DNA of 59,180 nt. Source: a virus (Duplodnaviria > Caudoviricetes). The notes under the pieces are model-generated. The model was not told the origin of the DNA, searched no databases, and worked only from the letters and a program-made list of their open reading frames with translations. The stretch is from positions 1 through 59,180 of the IMG/VR virus record IMGVR_UViG_3300014501_000021; one strand, given 5' to 3'. Positions 15,405 to 47,608 of the stretch are shown piece by piece; within the stretch, counting starts at the first letter, position 1, and the number at the start of each line of letters is the position of its first letter. The translations under genes were made by a program, and so were the position numbers.

Positions 15405-15408
15405 AACA

Positions 15409-18261: not shown

Positions 18262-18271
18262 CGGAAATATA

Positions 18272-21200
18272 ATGACAACTATTCATCCTATATTACTAAC
18301 ACAAACGGGAACAGCTCCTACGACTGGAGAAGTTCTAACAGCTACTTCTTCAACAACTGCTAGCTGGCTACCTGCTTCAGGAGGTGGTAGTAATGGTCCC
18401 AACTACTACATAATTGGTCCTACAGGTAATTATTCCACTCTGACACAGGCGGTCGCGGCTCACCCAGAATGGACCGATGGGACATTAGCGGTTACGGTCA
18501 CTATATTCTTCCAGGCGGGTGATTATGTAGAATCGCCTATCGTTCTTAATGGAGGAACTGGAAGTATAAATCTAACATGTACAACTAGCCCAGATAGTTT
18601 AGCTATCCTTAATTACAATTCGGCTACTCCTGCGATAACACATGCGGGCGGTACTCTTACTATTGCGCAGTTGCAGATTACGAATCCTGTTGGCGTAGTT
18701 ATAAATTGTACGGGTACGTTTCCTAGTGATGGTCTTATTATTGGTAACGATTCCTTCATAGATACCGATCTTGGCGCAGTCCCTTACGCATTGACGTTTA
18801 ATTCTGCAGGCTCTCTCAATGTTCAGGGTAACTCTCTCGTATTCGGTATTCACTATAATGGATCAGGAACGCAGAGTAGCCTTAATCTTAACCAGGCGCT
18901 TGTTTTCAATTATGGAGCACCTCCTCTATATATTGCAAACGGCCCAGAATTTGGAACACCGTTTGGATTTACCGTTAATTATTCTCAGCTCAGCGAGTTT
19001 AGTAATACGTTCCCTGCTATATTCGGTGCTGCAAATGGCTACGGTGGAAATATCAGTTTCAACGATCTCAATGGATCCGCTCCTACGAGTAATAATATCG
19101 GTACCAACGCGGGCGCGATTGGAAGCGTTCCACTAGCTACAAATCCTAGCGGCGGCGGGGGAATACTTCAAGTACAGGGAGATTTTTCTGCTAACTCTAT
19201 AACAACTCCAGCATTTCAAGTAACAACAGGTGCATCCGCGGGAGCCGTTCTGACTTCTGATGGTTCAGGAAACGCAACTTGGCAGGCTCCTGCGGCCGGA
19301 TTCGTTTTAGGAGCGGTTACTTCATATGCTATAGGTACCACTACCGCTGATGACATTGCGTTTGATGGCGTCAATATGTGGGTATCTGATGGATCTAGTG
19401 GAGGCGGGGTAGCCAAAGTTTCTCCAGATGGTGGCTACACCTTCTATCCTGCAGGATCGGGCTATCCTGGAGGTATCGCGTTTGATGGCGTCAATATGTG
19501 GCAAACGGGCTACACCCTCGCTAAAATAGCTCCGAACGGAACTGCAATCACCTTTGCTGCGGCAGCAGGTCAGCCGCAGAGTATCGCTTTCGATGGCGTC
19601 AACATGTGGACGGCTAACTACTCCGATAACTCTGTTACCAAGATCACTCCAGATTTAACACAAACAGTTTACTCTATACCGGATTGCACTACGCCTGGAG
19701 GTATCGCGTTTGATGGCGTCAATATGTGGATGGCTGGGATTGTTAGTAATACTATTTCGATGATTACTCCCAGCGGCGTATCTGTTACTTACCCTTTGTC
19801 AGGAATTAACCCATACGGCGTTGCATTCGATGGCACGAATATGTGGGTCGCATTCGGAGGAAGTCAGGCGGTTTCTATGGTCGCACCTGATGGAACAGAA
19901 ACCTATTATTCTGGAGCTCCAGACTTTGGGGCAAAAATAGCATTTGATGGTACCGATATGTGGGTTACGTGCGGCGGCGGAAGTGGTTCAGGAAATGTCA
20001 TACAAGTATCCCCATCTGGCGCTTTTACACTATGGCCTGTTGCTTCGTCGTATAGTCAAGGTATTGCGTGGGATGGCCAAAATATGTGGGTGGCTTCCTT
20101 CAGTAATAATGTTTATAAAGTAGCGGTTAGCCCAGATTATCACATTGCGCCGAATCCCGATGATCTTTTTGGATACGCAGTATTAAATAAAGAGGGCCAG
20201 GAGAACATAGCGGTAGGAACTACCCTGCTCGATATACCGATTGCTGGAGGATATCAGACAATATTCGATGGAACAAATATTTGGGTTCTCAATTATGCTA
20301 GCAATACAGCTACTCCTGTTTTAGCTTCAACGGGGACTATCGGAACGTCAATTACTGTTGGTAATAATCCATTCAGAGGAGTATTTGACGGAACCAATAT
20401 CTGGGTGATAAGCGCGACTGACGCTAGTGTAACACAAGTTTCAGTTGATACTTTATCGCCAGTTGCAACTTACGTAATAGCAGGGGCCAGTGCTCCTTCT
20501 GGTATTTCTTTTGATGGAACTTATTTTTGGATCGCAGATTATGCTACAGGTGACGTTTATAAAATGAATAATCTGGGAACAGTGTTAGATACTATCCCGG
20601 TTGCCGGCGAATTGTACGGAATACCTTTCGATGGGGCTAACGTCTGGGCAGTGAGCGCATCAGCTAATACCGTAACAAAAATACAGACTTCTAACTCTGC
20701 AATTATAGGCACTTACCCAACAAATCTCAGCTATTCCTACGAAGCGTGCTTTGACGGAAATAATATTTGGGTGTCTGACGCAGGCGGAACTAATGTTACT
20801 AAGTTCCAAGCATCAACAGGTACTCTTCTAGGAACTTTCCCTGCTGGAAATAATTGTTACGGATTGTGTTTTGATGGTACCTATATTTGGTCGCCGGGTA
20901 ACCTCGATAATGTATTAGTTCAGCTTCTCGCAGCGACTGGCGCAACCGTAGGAACTTATCATATTTCTTCGGGCGGCACCCTTGTGGGAGTAACATTTGA
21001 TGGGAATAATATCTGGACAGTTTCCGCGGTCGACTTAACTAAGGTAGCGGACCCCTTGCCACTTGATCCGTGGGCAATACTTCCTCGCGGAGCAATCTTA
21101 TCAACAGGATTAGCAATTCCAACTGGAGCTGCAGGTGGCGATTTGTCGGGAACTTACCCGGATCCTGTCGTATCATCTATAGATGGCGTGCCAGTCTCAA

Positions 21201-21721
21201 ATGTTGCGGGTGGTATCAATGTTCATTTAGCTACTGATGCTAACTTTTTAGTACAGACATTTGGCGTAGGAGACGTGACCCTTTCTGCGGTAAATGACGC
21301 ATACAACGCTAATACGCCAATGGCGTTCCGCGCGAGCAGCTATGTTTTTGAGAATCCGGGCGCAAGCACTGCTACTTTTAACGTTCCAGTTACAATCGCG
21401 GATGGTACACAAGCAGCGGGGTATGTATTCACTTCCGATGCATCGGGCGATGGTTCGTGGCAGGCGCCTGCTGCGCAGCCACAGGTATTAGCTCTTATGT
21501 CTAGTCCGGGAGCTGTTGGGGGAGCTACACAGACATTGACGGTGACAGGGCTTCTTGCTACAGATACTATCTTGGCGGTGACACAGATTACTCCAGGCGC
21601 GTCAGCAACGCTATCATTACTAGGAGTTAATCTACCTCAATCAGACGGATCTATATCCGTTTATTGGGTAGCAGATCCGGGAGTCGGCGCGGTTGTACTC
21701 GTATCAGTTTTACGATCTTAA
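18272..21721 (+). CDS. fibre/adhesin with beta-helix-like segment and two 7-blade FDG propellers
   Basis: N-terminus paralogous to 4212 (MTTIHPILLTQT); GNYSTLTQAV..FFQAGDYVE beta-helix-type start; 14 FDG-W repeats in two clusters. Confidence 0.75.
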   Translation: MTTIHPILLTQTGTAPTTGEVLTATSSTTASWLPASGGGSNGPNYYIIGPTGNYSTLTQAVAAHPEWTDGTLAVTVTIFFQAGDYVESPIVLNGGTGSINLTCTTSPDSLAILNYNSATPAITHAGGTLTIAQLQITNPVGVVINCTGTFPSDGLIIGNDSFIDTDLGAVPYALTFNSAGSLNVQGNSLVFGIHYNGSGTQSSLNLNQALVFNYGAPPLYIANGPEFGTPFGFTVNYSQLSEFSNTFPAIFGAANGYGGNISFNDLNGSAPTSNNIGTNAGAIGSVPLATNPSGGGGILQVQGDFSANSITTPAFQVTTGASAGAVLTSDGSGNATWQAPAAGFVLGAVTSYAIGTTTADDIAFDGVNMWVSDGSSGGGVAKVSPDGGYTFYPAGSGYPGGIAFDGVNMWQTGYTLAKIAPNGTAITFAAAAGQPQSIAFDGVNMWTANYSDNSVTKITPDLTQTVYSIPDCTTPGGIAFDGVNMWMAGIVSNTISMITPSGVSVTYPLSGINPYGVAFDGTNMWVAFGGSQAVSMVAPDGTETYYSGAPDFGAKIAFDGTDMWVTCGGGSGSGNVIQVSPSGAFTLWPVASSYSQGIAWDGQNMWVASFSNNVYKVAVSPDYHIAPNPDDLFGYAVLNKEGQENIAVGTTLLDIPIAGGYQTIFDGTNIWVLNYASNTATPVLASTGTIGTSITVGNNPFRGVFDGTNIWVISATDASVTQVSVDTLSPVATYVIAGASAPSGISFDGTYFWIADYATGDVYKMNNLGTVLDTIPVAGELYGIPFDGANVWAVSASANTVTKIQTSNSAIIGTYPTNLSYSYEACFDGNNIWVSDAGGTNVTKFQASTGTLLGTFPAGNNCYGLCFDGTYIWSPGNLDNVLVQLLAATGATVGTYHISSGGTLVGVTFDGNNIWTVSAVDLTKVADPLPLDPWAILPRGAILSTGLAIPTGAAGGDLSGTYPDPVVSSIDGVPVSNVAGGINVHLATDANFLVQTFGVGDVTLSAVNDAYNANTPMAFRASSYVFENPGASTATFNVPVTIADGTQAAGYVFTSDASGDGSWQAPAAQPQVLALMSSPGAVGGATQTLTVTGLLATDTILAVTQITPGASATLSLLGVNLPQSDGSISVYWVADPGVGAVVLVSVLRS
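19466..19729 (+). repeat. exact 36-nt direct repeat inside propeller-coding sequence
   Basis: CCTGGAGGTATCGCGTTTGATGGCGTCAATATGTGG at 19466-19501 and 19694-19729; its 24-nt core also occurs at 19358-19381. Confidence 0.9.
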
Positions 21722-24684: not shown

Positions 24685-25536
24685 ATGGCCAACTATTCAT
24701 GGATCGGTCCCATCATCATCAAACGTGTTCGGGATGCGATTGTCCTGAACTTACGTCGACAATTTTCGTATGACACGATGTATCCCTATGTAGAGACTGT
24801 AACGTTTACAGCTCTTCCAGGTGTAGTGAATCTTGATCTTGAATCGCCGTACGTAACAGGCGCTGGCACTAATTTTACAAAAACTCTTAACGCTGGAAAC
24901 AGAATTCAGTTTGCAAGTGATGTTAATTATTACTACGTCCTATCCGTTGCGAGCGATACTAGTTTAACGTTGACGACTAATTATACGGGACAGACAGTTT
25001 CGAGCGCGACAATAAGTATTGCGTCTAACGTTGTGGTAAATTTTGATTGTACGCGTATAGCCATCAACGACGCAACGCCTCAAGACTATTACTACTTACC
25101 TGCACTTGTAGTAAAGACGGCTGCTGGTGAAGAACATCGTTTTCTACAAGAAGATTTTTTCGAAGAATTTACAGATGTGAATGGAAACCAAAGCGAACGC
25201 AGAGGCGCTCCTATGGATATCAACGTAACGATAGAGGCGTTAGCTATAGACGTAATCACAAGAGATCAGCTGGTAGACCGCTTATACGAAAAGTTCAAAA
25301 TTATTACGACGGATCTTGCAGAAAATGGTATAGGTATCTTAAAGACGTCGATACTTCCTGACGATCGAAAATTCGAAAATGATCGTTGGTGGTATACATC
25401 CAGTATTTCGATGAAGTTGTACGCAGAGTGGTTGGATGAGGATATCGCAGCATTGAATTCGTCGATGACGGGCGTTAAGACGGGAATCTACACAGCACAT
25501 GGCGTTGATCAACGTTTCCAGATCAAAGATAGTTAA
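24685..25536 (+). CDS. probable tail completion/terminator protein with an inserted beta-barrel module
   Basis: Immediately upstream of the sheath; TIEALAIDVITRDQLVD motif; insertion VTGAGTNFT..GNRIQF..VLSVASDTSLTL. Confidence 0.55.
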   Translation: MANYSWIGPIIIKRVRDAIVLNLRRQFSYDTMYPYVETVTFTALPGVVNLDLESPYVTGAGTNFTKTLNAGNRIQFASDVNYYYVLSVASDTSLTLTTNYTGQTVSSATISIASNVVVNFDCTRIAINDATPQDYYYLPALVVKTAAGEEHRFLQEDFFEEFTDVNGNQSERRGAPMDINVTIEALAIDVITRDQLVDRLYEKFKIITTDLAENGIGILKTSILPDDRKFENDRWWYTSSISMKLYAEWLDEDIAALNSSMTGVKTGIYTAHGVDQRFQIKDS

Positions 25537-25565: not shown

Positions 25566-28500
25566 ATGGCAGACACAGCACCTTCTTTAGCGGCAGAGAA
25601 TGCCGAAAGCGGCGTAGTAGTTACATACGTACCCGCTACTAACCAGCCTTCTGTTCCGGGTGGTATACGTGTAGTCGGTCTTATCGGCACGGGATTGAAT
25701 TACAAGAATGTTACCGTTAAGGTAACTCGTGGGTCCGTTCTTAATGGACTTGATCCGCTAACTCCTGTGGCACTATCGCTACCTAGCACGATCACTGATG
25801 AAAACTATGTTGTCTACGCGTTAAATGCTGATTATACTCTTTCATTACCTGAGAGTATCTCTGGCAGCTGGACTCCTGTATCTCTTATAACCGGAATCCT
25901 TGCTCTTAATATTAACGGAGACGGACAGCAGACGATCATGCTTAATCTCGCGGATTCGGGTGGAGCGCAGATCGCAGCAGACATCCAGACTAAGGTGCGC
26001 GCTCTTGTACCTTTCAACTCGTCCAACGCTCTTGCGTATAGCGGCTTCTTAGCCTCTTATAATAATGGACAATTCACGCTAGAGTCTGGAACATTTCCTA
26101 TCGGGTCCGTTGTCGTCAACCCTGCAATCGGTGACGCGGGTATTTTAAATCTAGGAGTCGGTAATCCTGGCGCGGTAGAGACGGCTGGCGGAGGAGTTAA
26201 CTGGGGTCCTGAAGGATTTGCGTTCGATACTGGATCTATTAACGTAGGTGTCGGAGCATTCCCTTACGGAGTTAACCTTGACGGACAGACCTTTGAAGTC
26301 TACGCCAACGGCAGCCAGATGGCGCAGCTCGTTGACTTCGTTGGAGTTAACATTCGCCCTTCCTTCTTTACAGCATTAACAGGTTCTGTATCTCTTACTG
26401 TTGGATCAACAACGGTAACGGGTACGGGTACTACCTTCCTTTCACAGTTAGCTCCTGGCGATATTGTTCAGTTTACAGGAGATCCTACTCATACGTATAC
26501 TGTTGTAAGCATCGCAAGCAATCTCAGCATGCAGCTTGCTACACCTTACGCAGGACCTGCATTAGCTCTTGGATACGCTCTCGTTGCTGCAACTGCCATC
26601 ACGGGATCCGCTGGAGTAGGCACTATCATCAACGGCGATTTAGACATCGCCCCTAACGACCTTACTTCTGTCACTAACTTCCCGCCGGGTGTTGTTAACG
26701 GCGGACAGCATGGTGATGACGCAACCGCCATCGCGGCTCAAGCGGCGGCCTTGGCAGCATTCACAGCCGGGCAGACTGCGGGTGCATCTGGTACTACAAT
26801 TCCATCAACCTTAGATGGACAGACTCTTCTTCCTGGAGCGTATCAGTTTGCGTCGGGCACCGCGACATTGGCTACATCAGGTCCCGGAACTCTTACGTTC
26901 AACGGTCCTTCATCCGCAAGCTGGATCATCTATACAGCTACTACGTTAACGACGGGAGCAGGCGGTACACCTACAATGTCGTTTATTGGTGGATGTTCTG
27001 CGGCAAACGTTCTATGGATTATTGGATCTTCTGCTACACTTAACAGTGGAGTTTCTGGTACTTTTGGTGGAAATCTTATCGCGTATACAAGTATTACGGT
27101 TACTTCAGGTGGAATTGTTAACGGCTCATTGGCAGCGCTGAACGGTGCTATCACTCTATCAGCTCCTACTATCGTTAATGGCTCTTCCGCAAATACCGTT
27201 GTAAGTCTTGGTACTGGAATTATTCAGCAGATGAATGCTGCATTCTCTCCTGTAATAACGTTTAATTCTACTATCTCCTCAGCGTCATATACCGTTACTC
27301 TTCCACAGTTGCCTCAAGCGGGAGATACATTAATTGTATACGTAGGTTCTTCAAGTCCTACTCTTTATACGTGGACTGCGGGAGTACCGCTAGCTACTCA
27401 GTACAACTTGAATCCAGCAACAGGAATCGTAACGTTCAATGCAGCTGCGGCAAATCAATTCGTTGCAATCACTTACGCAGTAGCACCTACGTTAGTAGCG
27501 TCTGTTGATATCGAGGGTAGCGCAAACTACATCAAGGTATCCACTACTTCTAATGATAACGCGGTAGTCCAGATCGGTAATGGTACTGTTAACGCAAGCC
27601 TTGGATTCACAGCAGGTACTCAAGTAGCTGGTCCTAAGGAGCCTGCTTACCTTACGACTTATTCTTTCACGTATGGAACACCAAAGGTATCAACGCTCAC
27701 GCTGGACGATTACGGTCCTACTCTGTACACTGACTTAACAAGTCTTGTTGGAGCGTATGGTCCTGTTGCAACGACAAACGATCTCGCGGGATCTCCTTAC
27801 TCTGTAACTAATACGCTCCCGCTAGGTGCTCAGATTGTCTTTACAAACAGCGCAAACACTGGTGGAATTATGGCAGTACAGTGTAATCCAGCAGATGGTA
27901 CTCCGTTAGCTCAGTTCCAGGCGGCTCTAAATAAGCTAGCATCTGTCCCAGGCGTTAACATCGTTGTATGTTTGACTCCGATGTCTCTTTTGTATCCGTC
28001 TATCGTAGCCCACGTCGTTAACTGCAGTCAGCCGCTAGATGGTCTTTTCCGCACGGCTGTCATGGGGTTTGATCCGACAACAACTACAATTGAGTCAGCA
28101 ATCAATCAGGCGGAAGGAATTGCAGCAAGTGGTAATGGAAGACGCTTCTTAATGCCATGGCCTGCATCTGTCAATATTGCTCTTGCTAACAACACGAACG
28201 CACAACTTGATGGATCCTTCCTTGCAGCTGCTATCGCAGGACTACGTATCAATGGAAACAACGACGTCGCTACTCCGTTACTAAGACAGCAGCTATATCC
28301 GTTCACAACCGCCGCTGTTAACCTTCTTCGCACAGATAAGCTCGAACTGCGCGACGGTGGAGTAACCGTTGTAGAACTTCAGAACGGACTTGTTCGTATC
28401 ACTGAGGATACAACGACCGATCGTTCAACAATTGATAACCAGGAATTCTCTGTAACTGAAATCGTCGACTTCGTTGCAACGACTTGTGCCACACTTCTTA

Positions 28501-28727
28501 ACTCAATCTTCATCGGCGTTAAGATTCTTTCAAATACTACAAGTATCGTTACAGCGACAGTGCAGGTACTTCTTAATAACTTGATCGCCTTGAACATTCT
28601 TACAGACTATCAAAACGTTCAAGTTCAGGTTAACCCGCTGGACCCTAGACAGATCGATATCTCATTCGAAGTCGCTCCTGTATACGGTCTTAGATACATC
28701 TCCGTCACCTTCTCACTAGAGCAGTAA
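25566..28727 (+). CDS. contractile tail sheath protein with multiple inserted domains including a DUF3494-like ice-binding domain
   Basis: N-terminal GVVVT..RVVGLIGTG; C-terminal sheath core (DGSFLAAAIAG..LRDGGVTVVE..VRITEDTTT..QEFSVTEIVDFV..DPRQIDISFEVAPVYGLRYISVTF). Confidence 0.9.
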   Translation: MADTAPSLAAENAESGVVVTYVPATNQPSVPGGIRVVGLIGTGLNYKNVTVKVTRGSVLNGLDPLTPVALSLPSTITDENYVVYALNADYTLSLPESISGSWTPVSLITGILALNINGDGQQTIMLNLADSGGAQIAADIQTKVRALVPFNSSNALAYSGFLASYNNGQFTLESGTFPIGSVVVNPAIGDAGILNLGVGNPGAVETAGGGVNWGPEGFAFDTGSINVGVGAFPYGVNLDGQTFEVYANGSQMAQLVDFVGVNIRPSFFTALTGSVSLTVGSTTVTGTGTTFLSQLAPGDIVQFTGDPTHTYTVVSIASNLSMQLATPYAGPALALGYALVAATAITGSAGVGTIINGDLDIAPNDLTSVTNFPPGVVNGGQHGDDATAIAAQAAALAAFTAGQTAGASGTTIPSTLDGQTLLPGAYQFASGTATLATSGPGTLTFNGPSSASWIIYTATTLTTGAGGTPTMSFIGGCSAANVLWIIGSSATLNSGVSGTFGGNLIAYTSITVTSGGIVNGSLAALNGAITLSAPTIVNGSSANTVVSLGTGIIQQMNAAFSPVITFNSTISSASYTVTLPQLPQAGDTLIVYVGSSSPTLYTWTAGVPLATQYNLNPATGIVTFNAAAANQFVAITYAVAPTLVASVDIEGSANYIKVSTTSNDNAVVQIGNGTVNASLGFTAGTQVAGPKEPAYLTTYSFTYGTPKVSTLTLDDYGPTLYTDLTSLVGAYGPVATTNDLAGSPYSVTNTLPLGAQIVFTNSANTGGIMAVQCNPADGTPLAQFQAALNKLASVPGVNIVVCLTPMSLLYPSIVAHVVNCSQPLDGLFRTAVMGFDPTTTTIESAINQAEGIAASGNGRRFLMPWPASVNIALANNTNAQLDGSFLAAAIAGLRINGNNDVATPLLRQQLYPFTTAAVNLLRTDKLELRDGGVTVVELQNGLVRITEDTTTDRSTIDNQEFSVTEIVDFVATTCATLLNSIFIGVKILSNTTSIVTATVQVLLNNLIALNILTDYQNVQVQVNPLDPRQIDISFEVAPVYGLRYISVTFSLEQ
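26574..27179 (+). other. DUF3494-type ice-binding domain, copy 1 (in tail sheath)
   Basis: YALVAATAIT..INGDLDIAP..SVTNFPPG..G.QH.DD..A..AQ..A..AF; LDGQTLLPGAY; TLTT; AANVLWIIGSSATL; F.GNLIA.TSITV..G..VNGSLAA.NGAITL. This is the full DUF3494 motif series. Confidence 0.85.
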
Positions 28728-28735
28728 TCTGACCA

Positions 28736-29326
28736 ATGGCTACGCCGCAACTACCGCAAACAGAACAGCGTCTAGCGACATCGCTCTCCATTTATTTCTT
28801 ACCGGAGAGTTCGATTAGCTTAAGCACTTCTTTTGCAAGTATCTTTGCGCCGAGATCTACGACAACGGCCGTTGTAAATCAAATGCAACAGTTAGATGGT
28901 ATTGTTTCTTTTAATGAAGAACAGTCTAGAACGTTAGACTGGCGGTATGAAATAGATTCGGACGGCATTGGGGCCCCGCTAGAAGTTATGGCGTCCCCAG
29001 TGCGTCATACTATTAAACTTAAAAGGGCTGTAACGTACTATGCCGACTTAATTAGTATTCTTGGATTCAACTCATTAGGGATTAATTCAAGTCAAGGAAT
29101 ACCCGCTGACGGAACAGTTGACGGCGGATTGCTCGCGCAAGCTATCACAAACCCCTATATCTTCATAAAGAAAGAGATTGATCCGTCGGGTAACGATATT
29201 GTTACTTTTTATAGAAATTGCTTGCTAGGCACCATAACGAAGGATGCGGCTGTAAATGCAGGGGTGCTAGGCATGTATGAAGACGCCGTGATTTACTACG
29301 CAGATCGTCAACTATTTACAGGCTAA
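28736..29326 (+). CDS. tail tube protein paralog 1
   Basis: Directly after the sheath; RLATSLSI..GIVSFNEEQSR..RYEI..IKLKRAVTY..TFYRNCLL tube-like pattern. Confidence 0.7.
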   Translation: MATPQLPQTEQRLATSLSIYFLPESSISLSTSFASIFAPRSTTTAVVNQMQQLDGIVSFNEEQSRTLDWRYEIDSDGIGAPLEVMASPVRHTIKLKRAVTYYADLISILGFNSLGINSSQGIPADGTVDGGLLAQAITNPYIFIKKEIDPSGNDIVTFYRNCLLGTITKDAAVNAGVLGMYEDAVIYYADRQLFTG

Positions 29327-38174: not shown

Positions 38175-38651
38175 ATGGATTTTCTTTTACAGACGCTTCA
38201 AAATTATAATGATCCTTATAGTAATCCTGTTTCGAATGCTTTATCCAATACATTTTGGGGTCAAGGCACAAACGATCTAATTGTCGACACTACGGGCGAT
38301 TTTGCTACGGTGGACGGCCTTAACAATTTGGCCCAATCGATGATGAAGATTATTACAACCGAGAGGGGCGCTAATATATTCACACCGATGTACGGCTCTA
38401 CTCTTAACGATTTTGTCGGCGCCGACATTAATATCGATGAGCTTAGAGCTAACGTTAAGACCGACATGATTGACACTCTTCGTATATACCAGTTTATTAA
38501 TCAAGGAAATCCAGATCTAAATGAGCAGATCGATACGTTACAGTCTCTTGCTGTCAACTTAATCCCAGGAATTAACGGAATTAACGTTAGTTTTCAAGTA
38601 ATTACTCGGTCGGGACTCCAAGCGGGTAGTACTATACAAGTCGAAGGATAA
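38175..38651 (+). CDS. baseplate wedge protein, gp25/GPW-like
   Basis: GDFATVDGLNNLAQSMMKIITTERGANIFTPMYGSTL signature. Confidence 0.85.
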   Translation: MDFLLQTLQNYNDPYSNPVSNALSNTFWGQGTNDLIVDTTGDFATVDGLNNLAQSMMKIITTERGANIFTPMYGSTLNDFVGADINIDELRANVKTDMIDTLRIYQFINQGNPDLNEQIDTLQSLAVNLIPGINGINVSFQVITRSGLQAGSTIQVEG

Positions 38652-38654
38652 TCT

Positions 38655-40109
38655 ATGATTCGCACGGTAACTCAAGTAATTAACAGCGCTGTTTCATATA
38701 TCCAAGGCGTCATCCCTGGACTATCTCTTTTGGCAGGTACTGTCGGCAGAGATGTCGTAGTTGAATCCCCCGCTCAAGAATTTGGATTAGTATGGACCGA
38801 GCTGGGCCGCGTTGAGTCTATGCAGCTTATGAATGATCCTACAGCATTCATTAATAATGAGCTTGACGACTTAGCTTCTAGCTTTGGATTAACGAGAAAT
38901 CCCGGTACTGCTTCACAGGGTTCAGCAATTTTTGCGCTTACTACTTTCTCGACAGCATCTTCCAATGTTGTCATTCCTGTCGGTACCGATATCTCTACTC
39001 AGTCTAGTCTTTCTAATAATGTAGTAATTTCTTTCGTGACTACCGCAACAGCTACTTTCGTGGCCGCGAACGCTAGTGAATATTTTAACCCGCTTGATGG
39101 TTTGTATGAATTAACGGTGCCTATCCAAGCCTCCGCAATAGGATCTGCTAGCAACGTCGCGGCTGATACTATCACGGTGTTAACAACTTCTATTCCAGGT
39201 GGCCCTACTGTTAACAACCCTAATCAAACAGCGGGAGGAAGCGATGCGGAATCAGACGCGTCACTGCTATCTCGTATTCAAACTAAGCTAGCGGGTACTG
39301 CTATGGGTACGCCTAACGGCATCCTTAGCTTTGTCGACGCCAACCCTAACGTTATAGCCTCTTTACTTGTTGGCCCAACGGATCCACTATTAGTGCGTAG
39401 CTCGTATGGTAACGCTGCTGACGTATATATCATTGGAGATATTCCAACGCCTGTCACAGAGAGCCAGACGTACATAGCGGGTATTAACACTTACGTGTTG
39501 GAGCAACAGCCTGTAGAGGCTGGGTCTGTTAATTCTATTATTCTTGGAACCGTTGGCGGCGTAGCGTTCAATTTTATACAGAATACTAACTTCGTAGTTA
39601 ACCAAGATAATACGACGTCGTATGGAGGATCGTCATCCGCCCAGACTTCTATTACGTTTCTTGGTTCGCCTTTTCCGGACGCCAACACCGCTTTCACAGT
39701 TAACTATTCTATCAATAGTTTAATCGTTACGTTGCAGACTGCAATCAATTCAGACGCTAACCAGATCATCGGTACGAATATTTTGATAAGAGAGGCTATC
39801 GAAATTCTTGTTAACGTTGGTGCCTACATTACTGTCTACCCTGGTTTCACAAAAGCGAATGTAACTGCCGCCGCAGAAAATAACGTTGAAACTTTGTTGA
39901 ATACATCGACGTTAGGAACGTCAATTAGTGAGTCCGATATTATTGCGACTATCCAAGATACGCCAGGAGTGCAGGCGGTTCAGATACCTATCTCCATAGA
40001 AATATCAACTCCTACGATGCCGACGTTTACATCCGTCTCTACGCTTACAACTGCAGAGAACGAATATCTGCGACCGAACCCTGCGCCTAACTCAATAGCA
40101 ATTACTTAA
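38655..40109 (+). CDS. baseplate J-like protein
   Basis: LDDLASSFGLTR..A.G...GSASNVAADTIT..VNNP..TAGGSDAESDASLLSRI..ADVYI signature. Confidence 0.9.
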   Translation: MIRTVTQVINSAVSYIQGVIPGLSLLAGTVGRDVVVESPAQEFGLVWTELGRVESMQLMNDPTAFINNELDDLASSFGLTRNPGTASQGSAIFALTTFSTASSNVVIPVGTDISTQSSLSNNVVISFVTTATATFVAANASEYFNPLDGLYELTVPIQASAIGSASNVAADTITVLTTSIPGGPTVNNPNQTAGGSDAESDASLLSRIQTKLAGTAMGTPNGILSFVDANPNVIASLLVGPTDPLLVRSSYGNAADVYIIGDIPTPVTESQTYIAGINTYVLEQQPVEAGSVNSIILGTVGGVAFNFIQNTNFVVNQDNTTSYGGSSSAQTSITFLGSPFPDANTAFTVNYSINSLIVTLQTAINSDANQIIGTNILIREAIEILVNVGAYITVYPGFTKANVTAAAENNVETLLNTSTLGTSISESDIIATIQDTPGVQAVQIPISIEISTPTMPTFTSVSTLTTAENEYLRPNPAPNSIAIT

Positions 40110-40740: not shown

Positions 40741-43700
40741 ATGTCCTTATACTCAACAATTCTATATACTGGTCCCTACGGCCCTACCAATCTCTATACA
40801 GGTAGCGGAGGAGACCAACTTCAAGACCTCGATTTCTACAGAACAGAAGCCGACGGCGAATACGTATTTCACTGGACATTTTTACAGTCTTTTATAAGTC
40901 CGGCGATCGATAATCTTGATTATGAATTGCAGTTGGATACAAACGAAGATTTTACGTTACCTACTTCTTTTGAAACATTCACTGAAACACCTATAAATAT
41001 TATTGCTCAGGGTTTTTCTGAGTCAGCCGTATACGCTGCGACAAATGCGAGTGGAGAGATTTTATATTTCCAGATTGACGGCGATGGATTTAGAAATATT
41101 ACGCTCGGAGTTGATGTAGGCGGAGCAGCTGTTGCTGCGGATATTCAAGCTAAGGTGAAAGCGTTAACCGCTAATAACCCTGCCCTGCAGGCATCTTATT
41201 CTAATTTTACCGCTGTATTCAATGTTACCCATAACACATACACGTTGACATCAGGCGGTACATCATACACAAGTCAAGTCACTGTATATCCTGGCCCTGC
41301 AGCTTCATTATTATACTTGGGCCGTTCTAACGGAGGATATGAGATAAGAGGAAATACTTATATCTTATCACAGCTTCCCGGCGGAATCTTGTCAGTAACA
41401 GATAGCTCTGGGCTAGTTTACCTTGACGTTTCACAGACTACAAATAGTCCTGCGCCGGGGCAGTACGTTACGAGCTTACCTCTGGGGCAGATATCCTTTA
41501 ACTCTGTAAATGTTCCCGACACAATAACTGTTGTCTATTACCCGTCTACAAGCGCGCCTATTCTTGACTACCAAGATGGTAACGTAGAGAAGGGTTTTAC
41601 TGTTCCGGTACCTTCGCGAATAGCTAGTGCTCCCGTTGTCTTCTACGCTCGAGTAGCTATCAAGCAAGGTAACTCGCTAGGCCCTTGGTCGGATACTCTG
41701 AAGGTATTAACGATCCCGAACGTCATATTGGAAACTGCCAGCCGTCTGTTAAATGCGCTTCCAGATTTTCATGTATATCCTACTGACGATCAATTTAGAC
41801 TTGCGCGTTCTCTTGTTGACGGAATAATCTATGCGCCGGGTAATAGCGTACCTCTGCCTAATTACTTGAGTAATATTGCTAAAGTATACATGGCTTATGC
41901 TAATGAATTCGATACAGAGTATCTTGAAAAAGAAAACTGCATAAGAGATGTTAGACAGGATAGGGTACGAGACGACCGCATTGGTCCTATCCTAGGATCT
42001 TTATATAAGTACCCACAGCCTGCTAACATGGTTAATGTGGATTATCGTTTAATTCTCAGCAACATGAAAGCGGCATCGTTAGACGGTGCTACGTACGAAG
42101 CGGTTAAGCTGGTTGGCGCAGCATTTACTGGAGTCGATCCGACAATATTCCCAATATCAAAAATCCTTAATTTTATAACAGCGGGATTTGATCCAGAGAA
42201 TACTGGCCCTTTTTATGATGGAAATGTCCAGAATATAACTGTTAATTCTAGCTTCCAAGCAACGCTCACTAATGGGACTGCAAACGATCCGATTATTCCT
42301 GGATCGCTTATATCGGGCCCTGAGTCGCTTGTTGCCGTAACGCCGACGATACCGTTAACGTCTCCCTATACTATTACGCTATCGCCTACTCCGGCTAGCG
42401 TTCCTACTATACCTGGGTATACTTTTGTATCCACCACAACATTAGCTAATACGGAAACAGATGTTATTAGCAATACCTTTCCGTACATTATTACTTTACA
42501 GTTTCCGCCTCTTAATATCCCTACGATTTCGGGATACTCATATACAACAGGGGTTCCTTCGCCCACGCAGTTTACTGTTAATTTTACCACAGGCGTTGTC
42601 ACGTTTAACGCGGCGGTTGCGAATACATCCGTTACACCGTCATACTTGTATGCCTCTGCGCTGCCATTATCTGGACAATTTAACGTTAACTTTTTAACAG
42701 GTGTTCTTACGTTCAATGCCGCTCAGGCGGGAATGACTCCTTCGATTACGTACATACCGAATTATCTTAGTGTTCTTTCCGGAGAGACTCTCACAATTAA
42801 CGTCGATAGCCTTGGCCCGCAAACTGTCACATTGGAAGGAGGGCCGTATACAACTAAGGATCAGGTTGCTGCAGCTATCGAAGCGGCTGTACAAGCTCTC
42901 GGAGCTCCTCCAGCGGTTACCTTCTTAGGCCTTTTAGCATACTCTACTATCACTAACGTTGGTTTTACTGTAGTCACAGGGGATGTAGATTTATACCCAG
43001 GTACTTCTGTAACAGGTTTTCCTCCTGGAACTTTCTCTGGTACGTTAAATATAGCAAATCCGGTTGCGCAAAACGCAATGACGGTAGCTACCGCAAAGTA
43101 TACTTCAGGACAAACTGCAGGTCTCGCGGGTACTACAATTCCTTCAGTACTTGATGGACAGACTCTAGTGCCGGGAGCGTATCAGTTTGCGTCGGGTGCT
43201 GCGACGTTAGCGGCGTCTGGTAACGCGTCTATGACGTTCAACGGTGCAGGTAATTACATTATATACACCGCGAGTACTCTTAAGACAGGAGCTGGCGGAA
43301 CAGCTACTATGAATCTTACGGGTGGAGCTACTGCGGCTAATATCTTATGGGTAGTTGGATCATCTGCTACTCTTAATATCACTAATGCAGGTGCAGGAAC
43401 CTTTGAAGGCAATGTAATCGCGCAAGCGAGCATTACTACAAACGGCGGAACGATAGATGGGTCACTATCGGCTCTTACAGGTGCGATCACTATTAGTAAT
43501 GCTACTGCGGTGCTGGGCGCAGGCGGCCCCGTTTCTCCTAGTGAAGAAACGGCCTATACGGACTTCTTGGCTAATTATAATTCTGCTACAGATCAATACA
43601 CTCTTATTTCCGGAAATCAGAACCCCACATCGACTAGCACTGTTGTTGTGACGGGAGGTACTGCTGCCACCCAGTTAAGCCTATTAGCAGGTGATGGAGC

Positions 43701-44562
43701 GATTCAGACGTACGGATTAGCTTATGTAACTCCGACTCCGTCTGGCCCCGCGGTTCCAACCGCTGGACAATTTACTAACAACATACTCACTAGCAATGGA
43801 AGTCTGTTAACATTCCCCGCGATTGAAGTAGGCAACCAGCACACAGTACTTTTTTATTCAGCTAATGAAATTTTTACGTATCTTCCTGGAAAGTATACAG
43901 AAACGCTCGTAGTTCCGTCTGTTGCTCCTTATACAGTAACTACATTATACCCTTCCTGCGATATTCCTGTCGTTGCAAAATATGATGCAGGAACTGTATC
44001 TACTGTGCATAATACGAATACTATGACTGGATCTGGAACCTCCTTTTTAACAGATTACTCGCCAGGCGATACTGTCGCATTTTCAGGACAGATGGGAGAT
44101 AGTATTACGTATACTGTCGCGTCCGTTGCTGATGATTTTAATTTAACGGTAACATCTAGCTATACTGGATTAACAACTTCAGGTCTTTTGAGTAACTTAA
44201 GTAGAGGCTACCAGTTTGTACCAACTCCTACAGTAGTGGTACCTCCGGCCGCTTTACCTCCTCCAGTGGTGCTCCTAGCGGATCAATGGACGGATAATTT
44301 TGATTCTCCTGCAACTTTAACGTTTAACGCGTCGTTCGTGAGTAAGGTAGTAGTTGTATCATATACGATAAGGGTTCCTATCCAAGACATAGATACGGTT
44401 AAAGACCATCCTATATTATTTAGCGGTACCGAAGCAGGATTCGGCATTGAAATTATCTTAAACAATCCGGGGCTATTCACTTTGGACCTAACGACCATAG
44501 CATTCCTAATGACCGAAATACTACCAGCGACAACTAAATTCATTCTGACGGAAGTAGAATAA
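40741..44562 (+). CDS. large baseplate wedge protein (tail protein I-like core) with inserted modules including a DUF3494-like domain
   Basis: LLNALPDF..LGSLY..YRLIL..GAT.EAVK..FTG core and C-terminal EILPATT motif; follows baseplate J. Confidence 0.7.
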   Translation: MSLYSTILYTGPYGPTNLYTGSGGDQLQDLDFYRTEADGEYVFHWTFLQSFISPAIDNLDYELQLDTNEDFTLPTSFETFTETPINIIAQGFSESAVYAATNASGEILYFQIDGDGFRNITLGVDVGGAAVAADIQAKVKALTANNPALQASYSNFTAVFNVTHNTYTLTSGGTSYTSQVTVYPGPAASLLYLGRSNGGYEIRGNTYILSQLPGGILSVTDSSGLVYLDVSQTTNSPAPGQYVTSLPLGQISFNSVNVPDTITVVYYPSTSAPILDYQDGNVEKGFTVPVPSRIASAPVVFYARVAIKQGNSLGPWSDTLKVLTIPNVILETASRLLNALPDFHVYPTDDQFRLARSLVDGIIYAPGNSVPLPNYLSNIAKVYMAYANEFDTEYLEKENCIRDVRQDRVRDDRIGPILGSLYKYPQPANMVNVDYRLILSNMKAASLDGATYEAVKLVGAAFTGVDPTIFPISKILNFITAGFDPENTGPFYDGNVQNITVNSSFQATLTNGTANDPIIPGSLISGPESLVAVTPTIPLTSPYTITLSPTPASVPTIPGYTFVSTTTLANTETDVISNTFPYIITLQFPPLNIPTISGYSYTTGVPSPTQFTVNFTTGVVTFNAAVANTSVTPSYLYASALPLSGQFNVNFLTGVLTFNAAQAGMTPSITYIPNYLSVLSGETLTINVDSLGPQTVTLEGGPYTTKDQVAAAIEAAVQALGAPPAVTFLGLLAYSTITNVGFTVVTGDVDLYPGTSVTGFPPGTFSGTLNIANPVAQNAMTVATAKYTSGQTAGLAGTTIPSVLDGQTLVPGAYQFASGAATLAASGNASMTFNGAGNYIIYTASTLKTGAGGTATMNLTGGATAANILWVVGSSATLNITNAGAGTFEGNVIAQASITTNGGTIDGSLSALTGAITISNATAVLGAGGPVSPSEETAYTDFLANYNSATDQYTLISGNQNPTSTSTVVVTGGTAATQLSLLAGDGAIQTYGLAYVTPTPSGPAVPTAGQFTNNILTSNGSLLTFPAIEVGNQHTVLFYSANEIFTYLPGKYTETLVVPSVAPYTVTTLYPSCDIPVVAKYDAGTVSTVHNTNTMTGSGTSFLTDYSPGDTVAFSGQMGDSITYTVASVADDFNLTVTSSYTGLTTSGLLSNLSRGYQFVPTPTVVVPPAALPPPVVLLADQWTDNFDSPATLTFNASFVSKVVVVSYTIRVPIQDIDTVKDHPILFSGTEAGFGIEIILNNPGLFTLDLTTIAFLMTEILPATTKFILTEVE
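42922..43512 (+). other. DUF3494-type ice-binding domain, copy 2 (in baseplate protein)
   Basis: FLGLLAYSTITNVGFTVVTGDVDLYPGTSVTGFPPG..LDGQTLVPGAY..STLKTG..GGATAANILWVVGSSATL..FEGNVIAQASITT..IDGSLSALTGAITI. Confidence 0.9.
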
Positions 44563-44563
44563 C

Positions 44564-47500
44564 ATGCAGAAAGAACAATTCTTTGAAGATCAACCAATAC
44601 TCGTAAGCGATCTAGAGCTTGCGCAAAGTAGTAAGGAGAGCGCTATCGAACAGCGTCAGCGCGATCTTCTAGATCCTGGCGTCATCATCGGTTCTCAATT
44701 ATTGGGCGAAGTTAGCGCTATGCAAGTTACTAACTCTGCTGACGGGGTAACAAGCGTCGGTTTATTTATTACCGTTAATACCGGTGTCGCCGTCTCCCCT
44801 ATAGCTGAGCGTATTATTATCCCTTCTTTAATAACCTATAACGTGGCGAACCCTATAGCCGTATCAGACAATGGAATTGGTGGAACGGTATTAACTCCGC
44901 AATCTTCTGGGTCTTTAAATGTGCCTGTAATGGATCGATCAATTCCCGGAGGTACAATTAACTGTATCTGGGTAGGTTATCTAGAAACAACCGATACAAC
45001 TGTATTTACAATAAGCGAGGGAAATAATTCCCGCTTATTTGTTAAGCACGACGACGGTTATACTATTGCGGTAACAAGTGCTCCTTCTAACGGACCGGCT
45101 GCTTACACAAATCCTGACCCGTCTGTTTATGTCTTAGTTGCGCAGGTTACTACGAATGGTGGGCTCGTTACATTAATCAACCAAACTAACTTCCTACAAC
45201 CTGCGACGTTTAGTGGAACTATACCGTCTCTTTCACCGTATCAGCTATCATTAATTGGATCTATTCTACCTAATCTTCCGCCGGACTTAGATAGACCTAA
45301 TAGTATTCCAGCTATTCCAGGCTTTACTTACACCGCAGGCGCACCTGCAGCGGGACAATTCTCCGTCAATTTCACTACAGGAACCTTAACGTTTAATGTA
45401 GCAAATGCAAGCACAGCTATAACTGCGTCGTTTCTGGTTTTGAATGTATGTATTCAAAACAGCGTCACTACAGGTAGTACGGTGGGAGCACAGTTGCACT
45501 TGAACGAAAAGACGTTAGTGTATGCTCTTGGATCGGAAGTCACACTAACAGGTCATGTCAACGCTTACGGATCAGGCGTTGTTGGCCCTAATAACCCTCA
45601 CGGAATAGGCGCTGCTGACATCGGATTAGCTAGTGTTAACGAGCTTGGTATCGTATTGGCGGATCAGGGTCTCGTAACTCCCACAGGAAATGCTAGCTCT
45701 ACTACTTCATCTTTATCTCCTTCAGCAGTTTTCCAGGCGTTGCCTCCGTCGGCTAACCTTGTAACTATCGCGCCACTCATTGCAGGCGAGTATGTAAACT
45801 TAAGTGGAAGTATCGTTTCAGCTACTAATATCCCTATTGCGACAACATTCAGCTTTGTAAATCCAAATACGCTAGCACCTCTTCCTGCGGGCACTTATTA
45901 CTTTTACATAGATCCTACGCTACTTACTGTACAACAAGGTACTTCATTACCTACAGGTGCTTACCCTATAGCTTCTATTATGTGGAATGGAGCTACAGTT
46001 GTACTACCAGTAACTGATCTTCGCACATTTGGAGTTATCGGTAAAAATAATCTTCGATTAGAAGTTTTGTTAGGTTTGGCGACGGGAGCGGCTACTGATA
46101 ATAGAACAACTACTCTTTATAGTGCTAAAGTTATTGGGTCAAATATTGCAGTAGCGCCTTACTCTACCTTTGCGGTAGGAGGCTATACGCTAGATATAAC
46201 AGTAAATGGTAACCCAGAGTCAGTAACATTTACAGGCACACTGGGTTCTAATTTATTAATATCGCAAGTTGTTGAACAAATCGAATCGGCTATCCCTAGT
46301 ATAACTGCAGTGGCACTAGATAATCAATTAAAGCTTTTATCGTCGGAATCGATAGCGGTTACAAGTGGCACTGCAGCCACTGTGCTTGGTTTTACGGGTG
46401 TCGCTACCGCAGGTACTTCTGTATCTGGAGTAGGACCCGCAACTACCGCTGCGCCCTCCGGCCTGACGTTCTATGTAAATATCAACGGAGACGGTGCTCA
46501 AGCAGTTAATATCCCGGATACGGCTACTACTGGAGCGTTAGTTGCGTCGGATATGCAAGCTGCTATCGAGGCTCTTATTGCGTTTAACCCAGGCAACCAA
46601 GCGGCTATCAATGCTACAACTGTTTCCTATTCTGCAGGAACAGGATATGCTTTACTTGCTTATTCAGCTATCACAGGCTCTACAGGGATTGGATCTACGG
46701 TTAACGGCAGTCTTTATATTACCCCTACCGCTTTAACGGGTATTACTAACTTCCCTCCTAGCACGTATAGCGGTGTTGAGCTTGGAGGGTCGGCACCCGC
46801 AGCTGTGGCGGCTATGACAGCAGCTAATACTACCTACTCTAACGTTGTATTGGCATCTTCAGGATATACAACTATCTTGCCTACTCTTGATGGTCAGATA
46901 TTAACTCCAGGAGGGTACAACGCAGGTGCCGCTCATTTAGCTACTTCTGGACCAGCTACTCTTACATTCAACGGCGCGGGCAATTATACTATCTATTGTT
47001 CAAGTACTTTGGTGACAGGTGCAGGAGGTATCCCAACTATGAATCTTACGGGAGGAGCTACCGCTGCTAATATCCTATGGGTAGTTGGATCATCTGCTAC
47101 TCTTAACTCAGGTACGGCGGGTACTTTTCAAGGAAGTGTTATAGCTAATGCTAGCATTACGGTTACCGCAGGAGGTACTATTAATGGATCGTTAGCAGCT
47201 CTTAACGGGGCCGCTACTCTTACGGGTACTACGATAGTTAATGCGCCAGCGTCTGGTCCTGCTGAATACATAATTACCTCAGGTACTGTAGGATCAAATA
47301 GCTCAGTCGTTATCACAGGCGCGGGAGCAGCTACACTAGAATTAGGGGTGCCGAATGGTGGTACTGAAACTACCGGAAGCGGCGGTTCAACGGATAGCGG
47401 TAACATTAAAGAAATCTTGATAACCGGAAGTACTTCTTCTACCGGTGTTGCGGGGCAGATTATCCCGGCTGAAATGGATTTAATCTATAATGGAAGCGGG

Positions 47501-47608
47501 GCGTTAATTCAGGTGGTCGCTTTTATGGGTAATGATACGCTTACGACAAATCTTATTTACAATTCTGATGGTTCTCTTAACTCCATCCAAGAAATAGTGA
47601 GCTTTTAA
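44564..47608 (+). CDS. baseplate-attached tail fibre protein with DUF3494-like domain
   Basis: N-terminus FFEDQPILVSDLELAQ.. paralogous to 48422; NPHG motif; DLR motif. Confidence 0.7.
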   Translation: MQKEQFFEDQPILVSDLELAQSSKESAIEQRQRDLLDPGVIIGSQLLGEVSAMQVTNSADGVTSVGLFITVNTGVAVSPIAERIIIPSLITYNVANPIAVSDNGIGGTVLTPQSSGSLNVPVMDRSIPGGTINCIWVGYLETTDTTVFTISEGNNSRLFVKHDDGYTIAVTSAPSNGPAAYTNPDPSVYVLVAQVTTNGGLVTLINQTNFLQPATFSGTIPSLSPYQLSLIGSILPNLPPDLDRPNSIPAIPGFTYTAGAPAAGQFSVNFTTGTLTFNVANASTAITASFLVLNVCIQNSVTTGSTVGAQLHLNEKTLVYALGSEVTLTGHVNAYGSGVVGPNNPHGIGAADIGLASVNELGIVLADQGLVTPTGNASSTTSSLSPSAVFQALPPSANLVTIAPLIAGEYVNLSGSIVSATNIPIATTFSFVNPNTLAPLPAGTYYFYIDPTLLTVQQGTSLPTGAYPIASIMWNGATVVLPVTDLRTFGVIGKNNLRLEVLLGLATGAATDNRTTTLYSAKVIGSNIAVAPYSTFAVGGYTLDITVNGNPESVTFTGTLGSNLLISQVVEQIESAIPSITAVALDNQLKLLSSESIAVTSGTAATVLGFTGVATAGTSVSGVGPATTAAPSGLTFYVNINGDGAQAVNIPDTATTGALVASDMQAAIEALIAFNPGNQAAINATTVSYSAGTGYALLAYSAITGSTGIGSTVNGSLYITPTALTGITNFPPSTYSGVELGGSAPAAVAAMTAANTTYSNVVLASSGYTTILPTLDGQILTPGGYNAGAAHLATSGPATLTFNGAGNYTIYCSSTLVTGAGGIPTMNLTGGATAANILWVVGSSATLNSGTAGTFQGSVIANASITVTAGGTINGSLAALNGAATLTGTTIVNAPASGPAEYIITSGTVGSNSSVVITGAGAATLELGVPNGGTETTGSGGSTDSGNIKEILITGSTSSTGVAGQIIPAEMDLIYNGSGALIQVVAFMGNDTLTTNLIYNSDGSLNSIQEIVSF
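46646..47242 (+). other. DUF3494-type ice-binding domain, copy 3 (in tail fibre)
   Basis: YALLAYSAITGS..VNGSL..P..ITNFPP..LDGQILTPGGY..STLVTG..GGATAANILWVVGSSATL..FQGSVIANASITV..INGSLAALNGAATL. Confidence 0.88.

Follow-up and report, generated by a model that had tools for sequence, protein, structure and literature searches.

An ice-binding-family (DUF3494) domain as an optional cassette in the tail sheath of an uncultured, permafrost-labelled myophage

Why should the contractile tail sheath of a phage carry a domain of an ice-binding protein (IBP) family? The question is raised by IMG/VR virus record IMGVR_UViG_3300014501_000021, from which a stretch of 59,180 nt (the window) was analysed. 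An open reading frame (ORF) in this window, 25566..28727 on the + strand, encodes a 1053-aa tail sheath with a complete DUF3494 domain, and the phage bears a permafrost habitat label. This observation is confirmed. An initial annotation of the DNA had gone further, taking the sheath to form a highly multivalent ice-binding lattice, possibly ice-nucleating, that changes its geometry on contraction. That interpretation is partly supported. A literature search found no description of a phage sheath carrying DUF3494 or the IBP-1 fold.

The assignment of the gene (P0001) draws on Pfam, PHROGs, an AlphaFold model and structural alignment. A Pfam scan of the product at E ≤ 1 returns two families only, PF11999 (Ice_binding) and PF17482 (Phage_sheath_1C). 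The latter covers aa 961-1050 with 29.1 bits against a cut-off of 26.9, and PHROGs tail-sheath families cover aa 643-1052 (phrog_2839, E 1.6e-32). The full-length model, built on a 62-sequence alignment (A3), has a predicted local distance difference test score (pLDDT) of 82.4 and a predicted template modelling score (pTM) of 0.58, with low pLDDT at aa 1-4 and aa 23-32. Its range aa 31..1053 aligns to solved sheaths over approximately 322 core residues, the alignments starting at aa 30-33. The phage 812 sheath matches with Z 35.2 and a root-mean-square deviation (rmsd) of 2.4 Å. The pyocin R2 sheath matches with Z 32.2, 322 residues being aligned onto its 385-residue chain. The model thus identifies the product as a contractile-tail sheath whose core fold is predicted to come from N- and C-terminal parts of the chain. 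That the 1053-aa product is a sheath, as initially claimed, is confirmed by Pfam, PHROGs and the phage 812 match. In the same window PF10934 identifies a sheath initiator and PF04865 identifies baseplate J, and a major head protein is encoded as well, a gene context typical of contractile tails.

The other Pfam family, PF11999, accounts for the cassette (aa 339-546; 26580..27203, +), which is delimited by Pfam, a model of the isolated domain, Foldseek and alignment boundaries. The match runs from aa 340 to aa 536 with E 3.7e-27 and a score of 95.8 bits (cut-off 28.7), and takes in positions 2-207 of the 208-position profile. Among solved structures, the closest by sequence are EfcIBP (E 2.5e-20) and AnpIBP (E 9.4e-20), both proven ice-binding proteins. 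Modelled alone from a 72-sequence alignment (A4), the domain reaches pLDDT 89.4 and has a helix at model residues 73-94. A mixed alignment of 128 sequences (A2), with 0 residues of DUF3494-only proteins in the domain columns, was discarded. In a Foldseek search with the domain model, the best 27 of the 31 matches at E ≤ 0.001 are all DUF3494 ice-binding proteins; for AnpIBP the template modelling score is 0.86 on the target. On this modelling, sheath aa ~339-546 form a complete IBP-1 triangular beta-solenoid braced by one long helix.

AnpIBP (PDB 7BWX/7BWY) and EfcIBP (PDB 6EIO) share both Pfam family and fold with the cassette, at 35% and 33% identity. Sheath aa 334..542 superposes on AnpIBP with Z 28.0 and rmsd 1.6 Å over 192 residues, and on EfcIBP with Z 27.4. 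The likeness to AnpIBP extends to a small-residue, hydroxyl-rich B face and to the conserved equivalents of S153 and T156. The two proteins differ from the cassette in being free, secreted products of ~200-220 aa with measured ice binding, whereas the domain described here is internal to a polymerising virion protein and is known from sequence. A free or secreted state, with single or tandem domains, is characteristic of DUF3494/IBP-1 ice-binding proteins; this copy sits inside the 1053-aa sheath. Viral company for the fold is sparse. In BFVD the only viral proteins with it are DUF3494 proteins of Hyperionvirus (three matches at E ≤ 0.001), which differ in belonging to a giant virus of eukaryotes, in being non-tail proteins and in being 18-26% identical. 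The sheath domain has no match among 50,697 cultured-phage records at E ≤ 1e-3, and a profile search of genome contigs with the single domain gave one weak partial match.

Does the cassette retain a plausible ice-binding site? PMC7277481 lists the ice-binding segments of AnpIBP, and their transfer by sequence alignment gives 26 outward B-face positions. In the sheath copy 25 of the 26 are Thr, Ser, Ala or Gly, the exception being V351. The sheath segments that make up this B face are aa 346-351, 367-370, 430-438, 459-464, 488-495, 508-513 and 527-532. AnpIBP residues S153 and T156, where the substitutions S153Y and T156Y cut activity to 17% (PMC7277481), correspond to sheath S488 and T491. Both are invariant in 13 virion-borne copies, namely four sheaths, two other window proteins and seven from two related virus records (G001 and G004). 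Over these copies the B-face positions have a Thr/Ser/Ala/Gly fraction of 0.90, a charged or bulky fraction of 0.00 and an entropy of 0.80 bits. The corresponding values for 12 presumed C-face positions are 0.53, 0.08 and 1.60 bits, and the Thr/Ser/Ala/Gly fraction of the domain as a whole is 0.56. By alignment, the B face is conserved and ice-site-like, and is the most conserved surface of the domain; this holds for the whole subfamily. The last coil of the DUF3494 fold ends beside the first (PMC11645318), and the ice-binding face of AnpIBP stacks in the order beta1, beta6, beta5, beta4, beta3, beta2 (PMC7277481), so both cassette linkers should exit from one end of the solenoid. By analogy, the B face would then span the distance from the attached to the free end, forming the side of a projecting domain and not its tip. 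A side observation on composition concerns the whole sheath, which is poor in charge (K 0.9%, R 1.4%, E 1.8%, D 3.8%), with Thr, Ala and Gly together making up 34%.

The domain is an optional part of the sheath. Among the 20 closest sheath relatives (P0001-P0020), four carry PF11999 and 16 lack it. A 12-sequence alignment (A1) displays it as a clean insert from aa ~338 to ~547, conserved on both flanks and absent from eight of the 12. Together with the structural alignment, A1 bears out the earlier placement of a DUF3494-like domain in a variable middle region between core pieces. Core and cassette do not diverge in step: P0001 and P0003 are 93% identical in the core and 48% in the cassette, the corresponding figures for P0003 and P0004 are 77% and 74%, and P0004 shares 86% of its core with P0005, which has no cassette. 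These comparisons indicate that the cassette has been swapped between sheath backbones. In a FastTree phylogeny of 140 domains, the copies from the four sheaths fall into two pairs, each well supported, within a 20-row clade; the pairs are not sisters, and a single origin of all four may apply. The G+C content at third codon positions (GC3) of the cassette, 0.385, lies within the range for the rest of the gene (0.27-0.43) and is therefore no sign of recent foreign origin.

Recurrence is also seen further afield. Seventy-one of the proteins collected for the analysis match the sheath-core hidden Markov model (HMM), and nine of them also carry DUF3494, at five or more different positions; the set is enriched for fusions, since the query held both parts, and 9/71 is not a frequency. 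The domain lies at aa ~290-562 in P0001-P0004, at aa ~165-390 in P0022 and P0046, at aa 51-252 in P0034, at aa 158-370 in P0091 and at aa 127-399 in P0160. Sheath relatives range in length from 669 to 1599 aa. Circular permutation is a further feature of the family here: in P0160 (a 922-aa sheath relative), P0132 and P0145, HMM positions ~50-207 are followed by positions ~2-50.

The sheath is not the only bearer of the domain. Three proteins in the window match PF11999: the sheath and two products encoded directly after baseplate J. A 1273-aa protein (40741..44562, +) has a second DUF3494 at aa 724-941 (nt ~42910-43563), and a 1014-aa protein (44564..47608, +) has a third at aa 689-909 (nt ~46628-47290), both found with Pfam. 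Compared with the sheath copy, their domains show 55% and 53% identity, respectively. P0062, a 389-aa DUF3494 protein encoded outside the window, is probably a fourth of the same phage; its contig measures 106,146 bp, and the contig recorded for P0001 has an identical length. Of five related virus records, two contain PF11999, with three matches in G001 and four in G004, the sheath being included in each. A complete relative with terminal repeats (G002, 210,348 bp) has 0 PF11999 matches. DUF3494 thus comes in sets, on the sheath and the post-baseplate proteins together.

How many copies would a tail display? Tail length follows the tape-measure protein, at 1.5 Å per residue. The probable tape measure here is a 587-aa ORF (P0179; 30625..32388, +), assigned by its position in the gene order and by likeness to ESM Atlas clusters of tape-measure proteins (score 0.94; PF10145 in 25 of 30 matches), with no Pfam or PHROG match even at E 0.1. 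The 587-aa tape measure named in the initial annotation therefore exists as an ORF and is probable in that role. In T4, a 64.4-kDa tape measure goes with 138 gp18 subunits in 23 rings, at a rise of 40.6 Å and a twist of 17.2 degrees (PMC3004832). Since the tape measure is T4-sized, it can fairly be inferred that a tail would contain ~22-23 hexameric rings and ~130 sheath subunits, thus ~130 DUF3494 copies. The T4 figures make the earlier estimate, on the order of a hundred subunits, a reasonable one. Nested inserts of T4 gp18 are solvent-exposed and directed outward, and its domain I protrudes without inter-subunit contacts (PMC3004832). By this analogy, the DUF3494 domains would be displayed outward on the sheath, in keeping with the initial expectation that inserts project. 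T4 gp18 and the phage 812 sheath share with this protein a core of N- and C-terminal parts with extra domains inserted between them, and the tape measure is of T4-like size. They differ in that the literature search found none with the IBP-1 fold, and the core studied here is at most 29% identical to that of any cultured phage.

Multimerised IBPs can gain avidity. The tail is a cylinder, however, and only subunits on one side would meet a flat ice front, so the real valency would lie far below 130. In T4 the extended sheath has a rise of 40.6 Å, a twist of 17.2 degrees and a diameter of 240 Å; after contraction these values are 16.4 Å, 32.9 degrees and 330 Å (PMC3004832). A similar change of geometry on contraction, as initially proposed, would be expected here, but contraction occurs at infection, and the altered lattice would matter only for spent particles.

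The habitat label comes from sequencing runs. The whole sheath gene is contained in one run labelled permafrost metagenome, possibly the source run of this DNA. Three more runs with a permafrost label, from three studies other than the first, contain short contigs with 0-1 differences, and one of these contigs (27040-27188) falls inside the cassette. No joint skipping the cassette was seen in contigs of the matching runs, which by their nature cannot show absence. Minor word sharing with runs from peat, soil, bog and lake was not counted as habitat evidence. At window positions 26790-26857, other contigs of the possible source run match with 3-7 differences over this segment alone, diverging beyond it, and probably represent further DUF3494 genes of the same community. 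Arctic virome PF11999 genes described in PMC11515562 belong to the same Pfam family, lie on viral contigs from a cold habitat and are read there as cryoprotection. The difference is that PMC11515562 treats them as auxiliary metabolic genes that benefit the host, whereas here the domain resides in virion structural proteins.

The following explanation brings these elements together. The sheath of a ~210-kb uncultured myophage carries an optional surface cassette, one complete IBP-1 beta-solenoid, joined by two short linkers to the outer, non-core part of the protein. With six copies per hexameric ring and ~22-23 rings, roughly 130 copies would coat the tail in its extended state; the two post-baseplate proteins bear further copies. 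Ice would be bound by the conserved B face, rich in Thr, Ser, Ala and Gly. In frozen soil, virions could thereby attach multivalently to ice or inhibit its recrystallisation locally, and the particle would be retained in, or protected at, thin liquid films where hosts persist. Ice binding through the B face is the function that we favour, but tentatively: the whole explanation falls a little short of an even chance. A more ambitious version is unlikely in its entirety. Here the coat would be a functional ice-binding lattice, a cold adaptation of the virus particle rather than a gene that helps the host. It would pin the virion at ice-water boundaries, with a spacing that fits the extended sheath only, and by this fit or by blocking recrystallisation it would guard the metastable sheath from contraction triggered by freeze-thaw.

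Several points weigh against ice binding as the function. The B-face positions of all 147 domains have values near those of the virion copies (Thr/Ser/Ala/Gly 0.88, charged or bulky 0.03, entropy 1.26 bits). The S488/T491 motif is near-invariant in all 72 sequences of A4 and hence cannot separate ice binders from other members. Faces were assigned by alignment and not from coordinates, and the C-face positions were guessed from strand periodicity. All solved DUF3494 structures are from cold organisms, which is an ascertainment bias; habitats with PF11999 include rock and the subsurface, among others. The three other permafrost studies date from a single year and may be parts of one campaign. 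Finally, close relatives manage without the cassette.

The main rival is adhesion to another ligand. DUF3494 domains would then be general adhesins for host capsule or exopolysaccharide, a cell-surface glycan, or organic and mineral surfaces of soil, keeping the virion near its hosts and acting like Ig-like or carbohydrate-binding decorations. The family is said to include substrate-binding and adhesive members, and adhesive trail proteins of diatoms are cited in PMC12337378 under PF20597, a related family; the sheath domain, however, matches PF11999, not PF20597 (Pfam, E ≤ 1). Proteins encoded after the baseplate genes, the usual position for receptor-binding proteins, bear DUF3494 too. The exchange of cassettes between backbones (core 93%, cassette 48% for P0001 and P0003) and their presence or absence among close relatives are typical of host-interaction modules. 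Against this, the putative face is the most conserved surface and has no charged or aromatic residues, which fits an invariant ligand better than strain-specific glycans; the permafrost label of the habitat is a further point against. The conservation of the B face is also why less weight was given to reading the swapping of cassettes as evidence for a strain-specific ligand. An adhesin for something other than ice is possible, though on the unlikely side. High face conservation would equally suit a protein-protein contact. Flat hydrophobic faces might bind one another or other virion parts, either cementing sheath subunits in the extended state or holding fibre or baseplate proteins that bear DUF3494 against the sheath, in the way that the long fibres of T4 are stowed along its tail. 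Sheath and post-baseplate proteins carry the domain in an all-or-none pattern, AnpIBP crystals tend toward face-to-face packing of ice-binding faces (PMC7277481), and T4 fibres are retracted along the extended tail (PMC3004832). Yet the cassettes of the sheath and of the other proteins of the phage are of different types (53-55% identity), cassette-free relatives still build tails, and T4 domain I makes no inter-subunit contacts. Such a role is improbable. Most improbable of the functional alternatives is an efficient ice nucleator formed by the sheath lattice of DUF3494 faces, for which the chance is very slight. Many copies would indeed lie on a regular lattice, and IBPs do nucleate somewhat, with activity growing with size; this activity is weak and in proportion to size (PMC6843771). 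A potent nucleator depends on an unbroken array that organises water, and loses its activity when a bulky insertion interrupts it (PMC9418140); freezing near 0 °C takes tens of thousands of ordered waters on large fibres (PMC10727499). On the tail there would be separate faces of ~14 nm2 (1,418 Å2 in AnpIBP), ~4 nm apart axially on a curved cylinder. InaZ-type ice-nucleation proteins are characterised by a long continuous tandem-repeat array, whereas the solenoid here has only 6-7 rungs, and the Pfam scan of the sheath at E ≤ 1 found no ice-nucleation repeat family. With faces this small and separate from one another, potent ice nucleation is unlikely; it is the boldest and also the weakest part of the earlier reading.

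It might also be asked whether the cassette has any selected function on the sheath, or is a tolerated passenger. It is dispensable in relatives, and the surface regions of the sheath accept varied inserts, as the range from 669 to 1599 aa attests. Its recurrence at different sites in several sheath lineages and its coordinated presence on several virion proteins speak for selection, as does a face that is conserved despite 48% overall cassette identity; the unremarkable GC3 argues against a recent arrival. A passenger role is decidedly improbable. What would follow depends on the ligand. If the domains bind ice, they are a virion-level physical adaptation to frozen habitats that bears on phage persistence in permafrost, and they provide a natural scaffold with >100 ice-binding faces at fixed spacing. 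Such a scaffold would be a test object for the effects of valency and spacing on avidity, recrystallisation inhibition and nucleation. If another ligand is bound, the 'ice-binding' family is a general phage adhesin, and caution is due in reading viral PF11999 as cryoprotection. Surface modules that hold a cell or particle by many weak contacts have precedents in the ice adhesin MpIBP of Marinomonas primoryensis and the Hoc-type Ig-like decorations of T4, which have unrelated folds and are not family members.

The remainder of the sheath gene is itself modular. An N-terminal arm and N-terminal core piece (aa 1-45; 25566..25700, +) are defined by structural alignments. They are followed by a variable surface region (aa 46-270; 25701..26375, +), delimited in A1, that has 57-83% identity among relatives. 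A ~100-aa N-terminal surface unit within it (sheath aa ~110-200) is duplicated in some relatives (P0019, P0020), so that the number of repeats adds to the cassette as a source of variation in the sheath surface. Next comes a small beta module (aa 271-338; 26376..26579, +) of a kind common to fibre-type proteins (PHROGs 2712/9922/1980, PDB 23gd_B, A1). The PHROGs matched by aa 272-339 are annotated as tail fibre, and PDB 23gd_B is a distal tail protein (aa 4-73). The module is kept in 10 of 12 aligned relatives, some of them without DUF3494. Copies of this ~70-aa unit occur in three virion proteins (24685-25536, 26376-26579 and aa 1081-1149 of ORF 40741-44562); like the DUF3494 cassette it is shuffled, but independently. 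Beyond the cassette lie a helix and a second accessory insert (aa 547-689; 27204..27632, +), recognised from A1, segment identities and the model; the insert (aa ~560-640) is common to P0002-P0005 only. The conserved C-terminal sheath core (aa 690-1053; 27633..28727, +) is covered by the core HMM, Phage_sheath_1C and the phage 812 sheath match.

In the window as a whole, replication genes come after a block of myophage structural genes; the products include the major head protein, sheath initiator, baseplate J, an endolysin and helicases. A CheckV completeness estimate of 28% implies a genome of ~210 kb, and the relative with terminal repeats has 210,348 bp. Directly after the sheath, a 196-aa ORF (28736..29326, +) is presumed from its position to encode the tail tube; it has no family match in Pfam or PHROGs, and relative L005 has this 196-aa ORF behind its sheath gene too. 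The sheath initiator (gp25-like) and baseplate J genes lie at 38175..40109 (+; PF10934, PF04865, PHROGs). Cultured relatives are distant: the best for the sheath core is Rhodococcus phage E3 (28.7% identity, among 226 matched records), the best for the head protein is Bacillus phage G (28.2%, among nine), and baseplate J reaches at most 36.7% (among 29). None of the records matched by these three proteins is a Myxococcus phage. Between the head and tail modules, at 10551-21721, are three very large ORFs (1617, 950 and 1149 aa). Two of them have weak beta-propeller-type matches (SGL, Vgb_lyase-like), and these large ORFs may encode further surface fibres.

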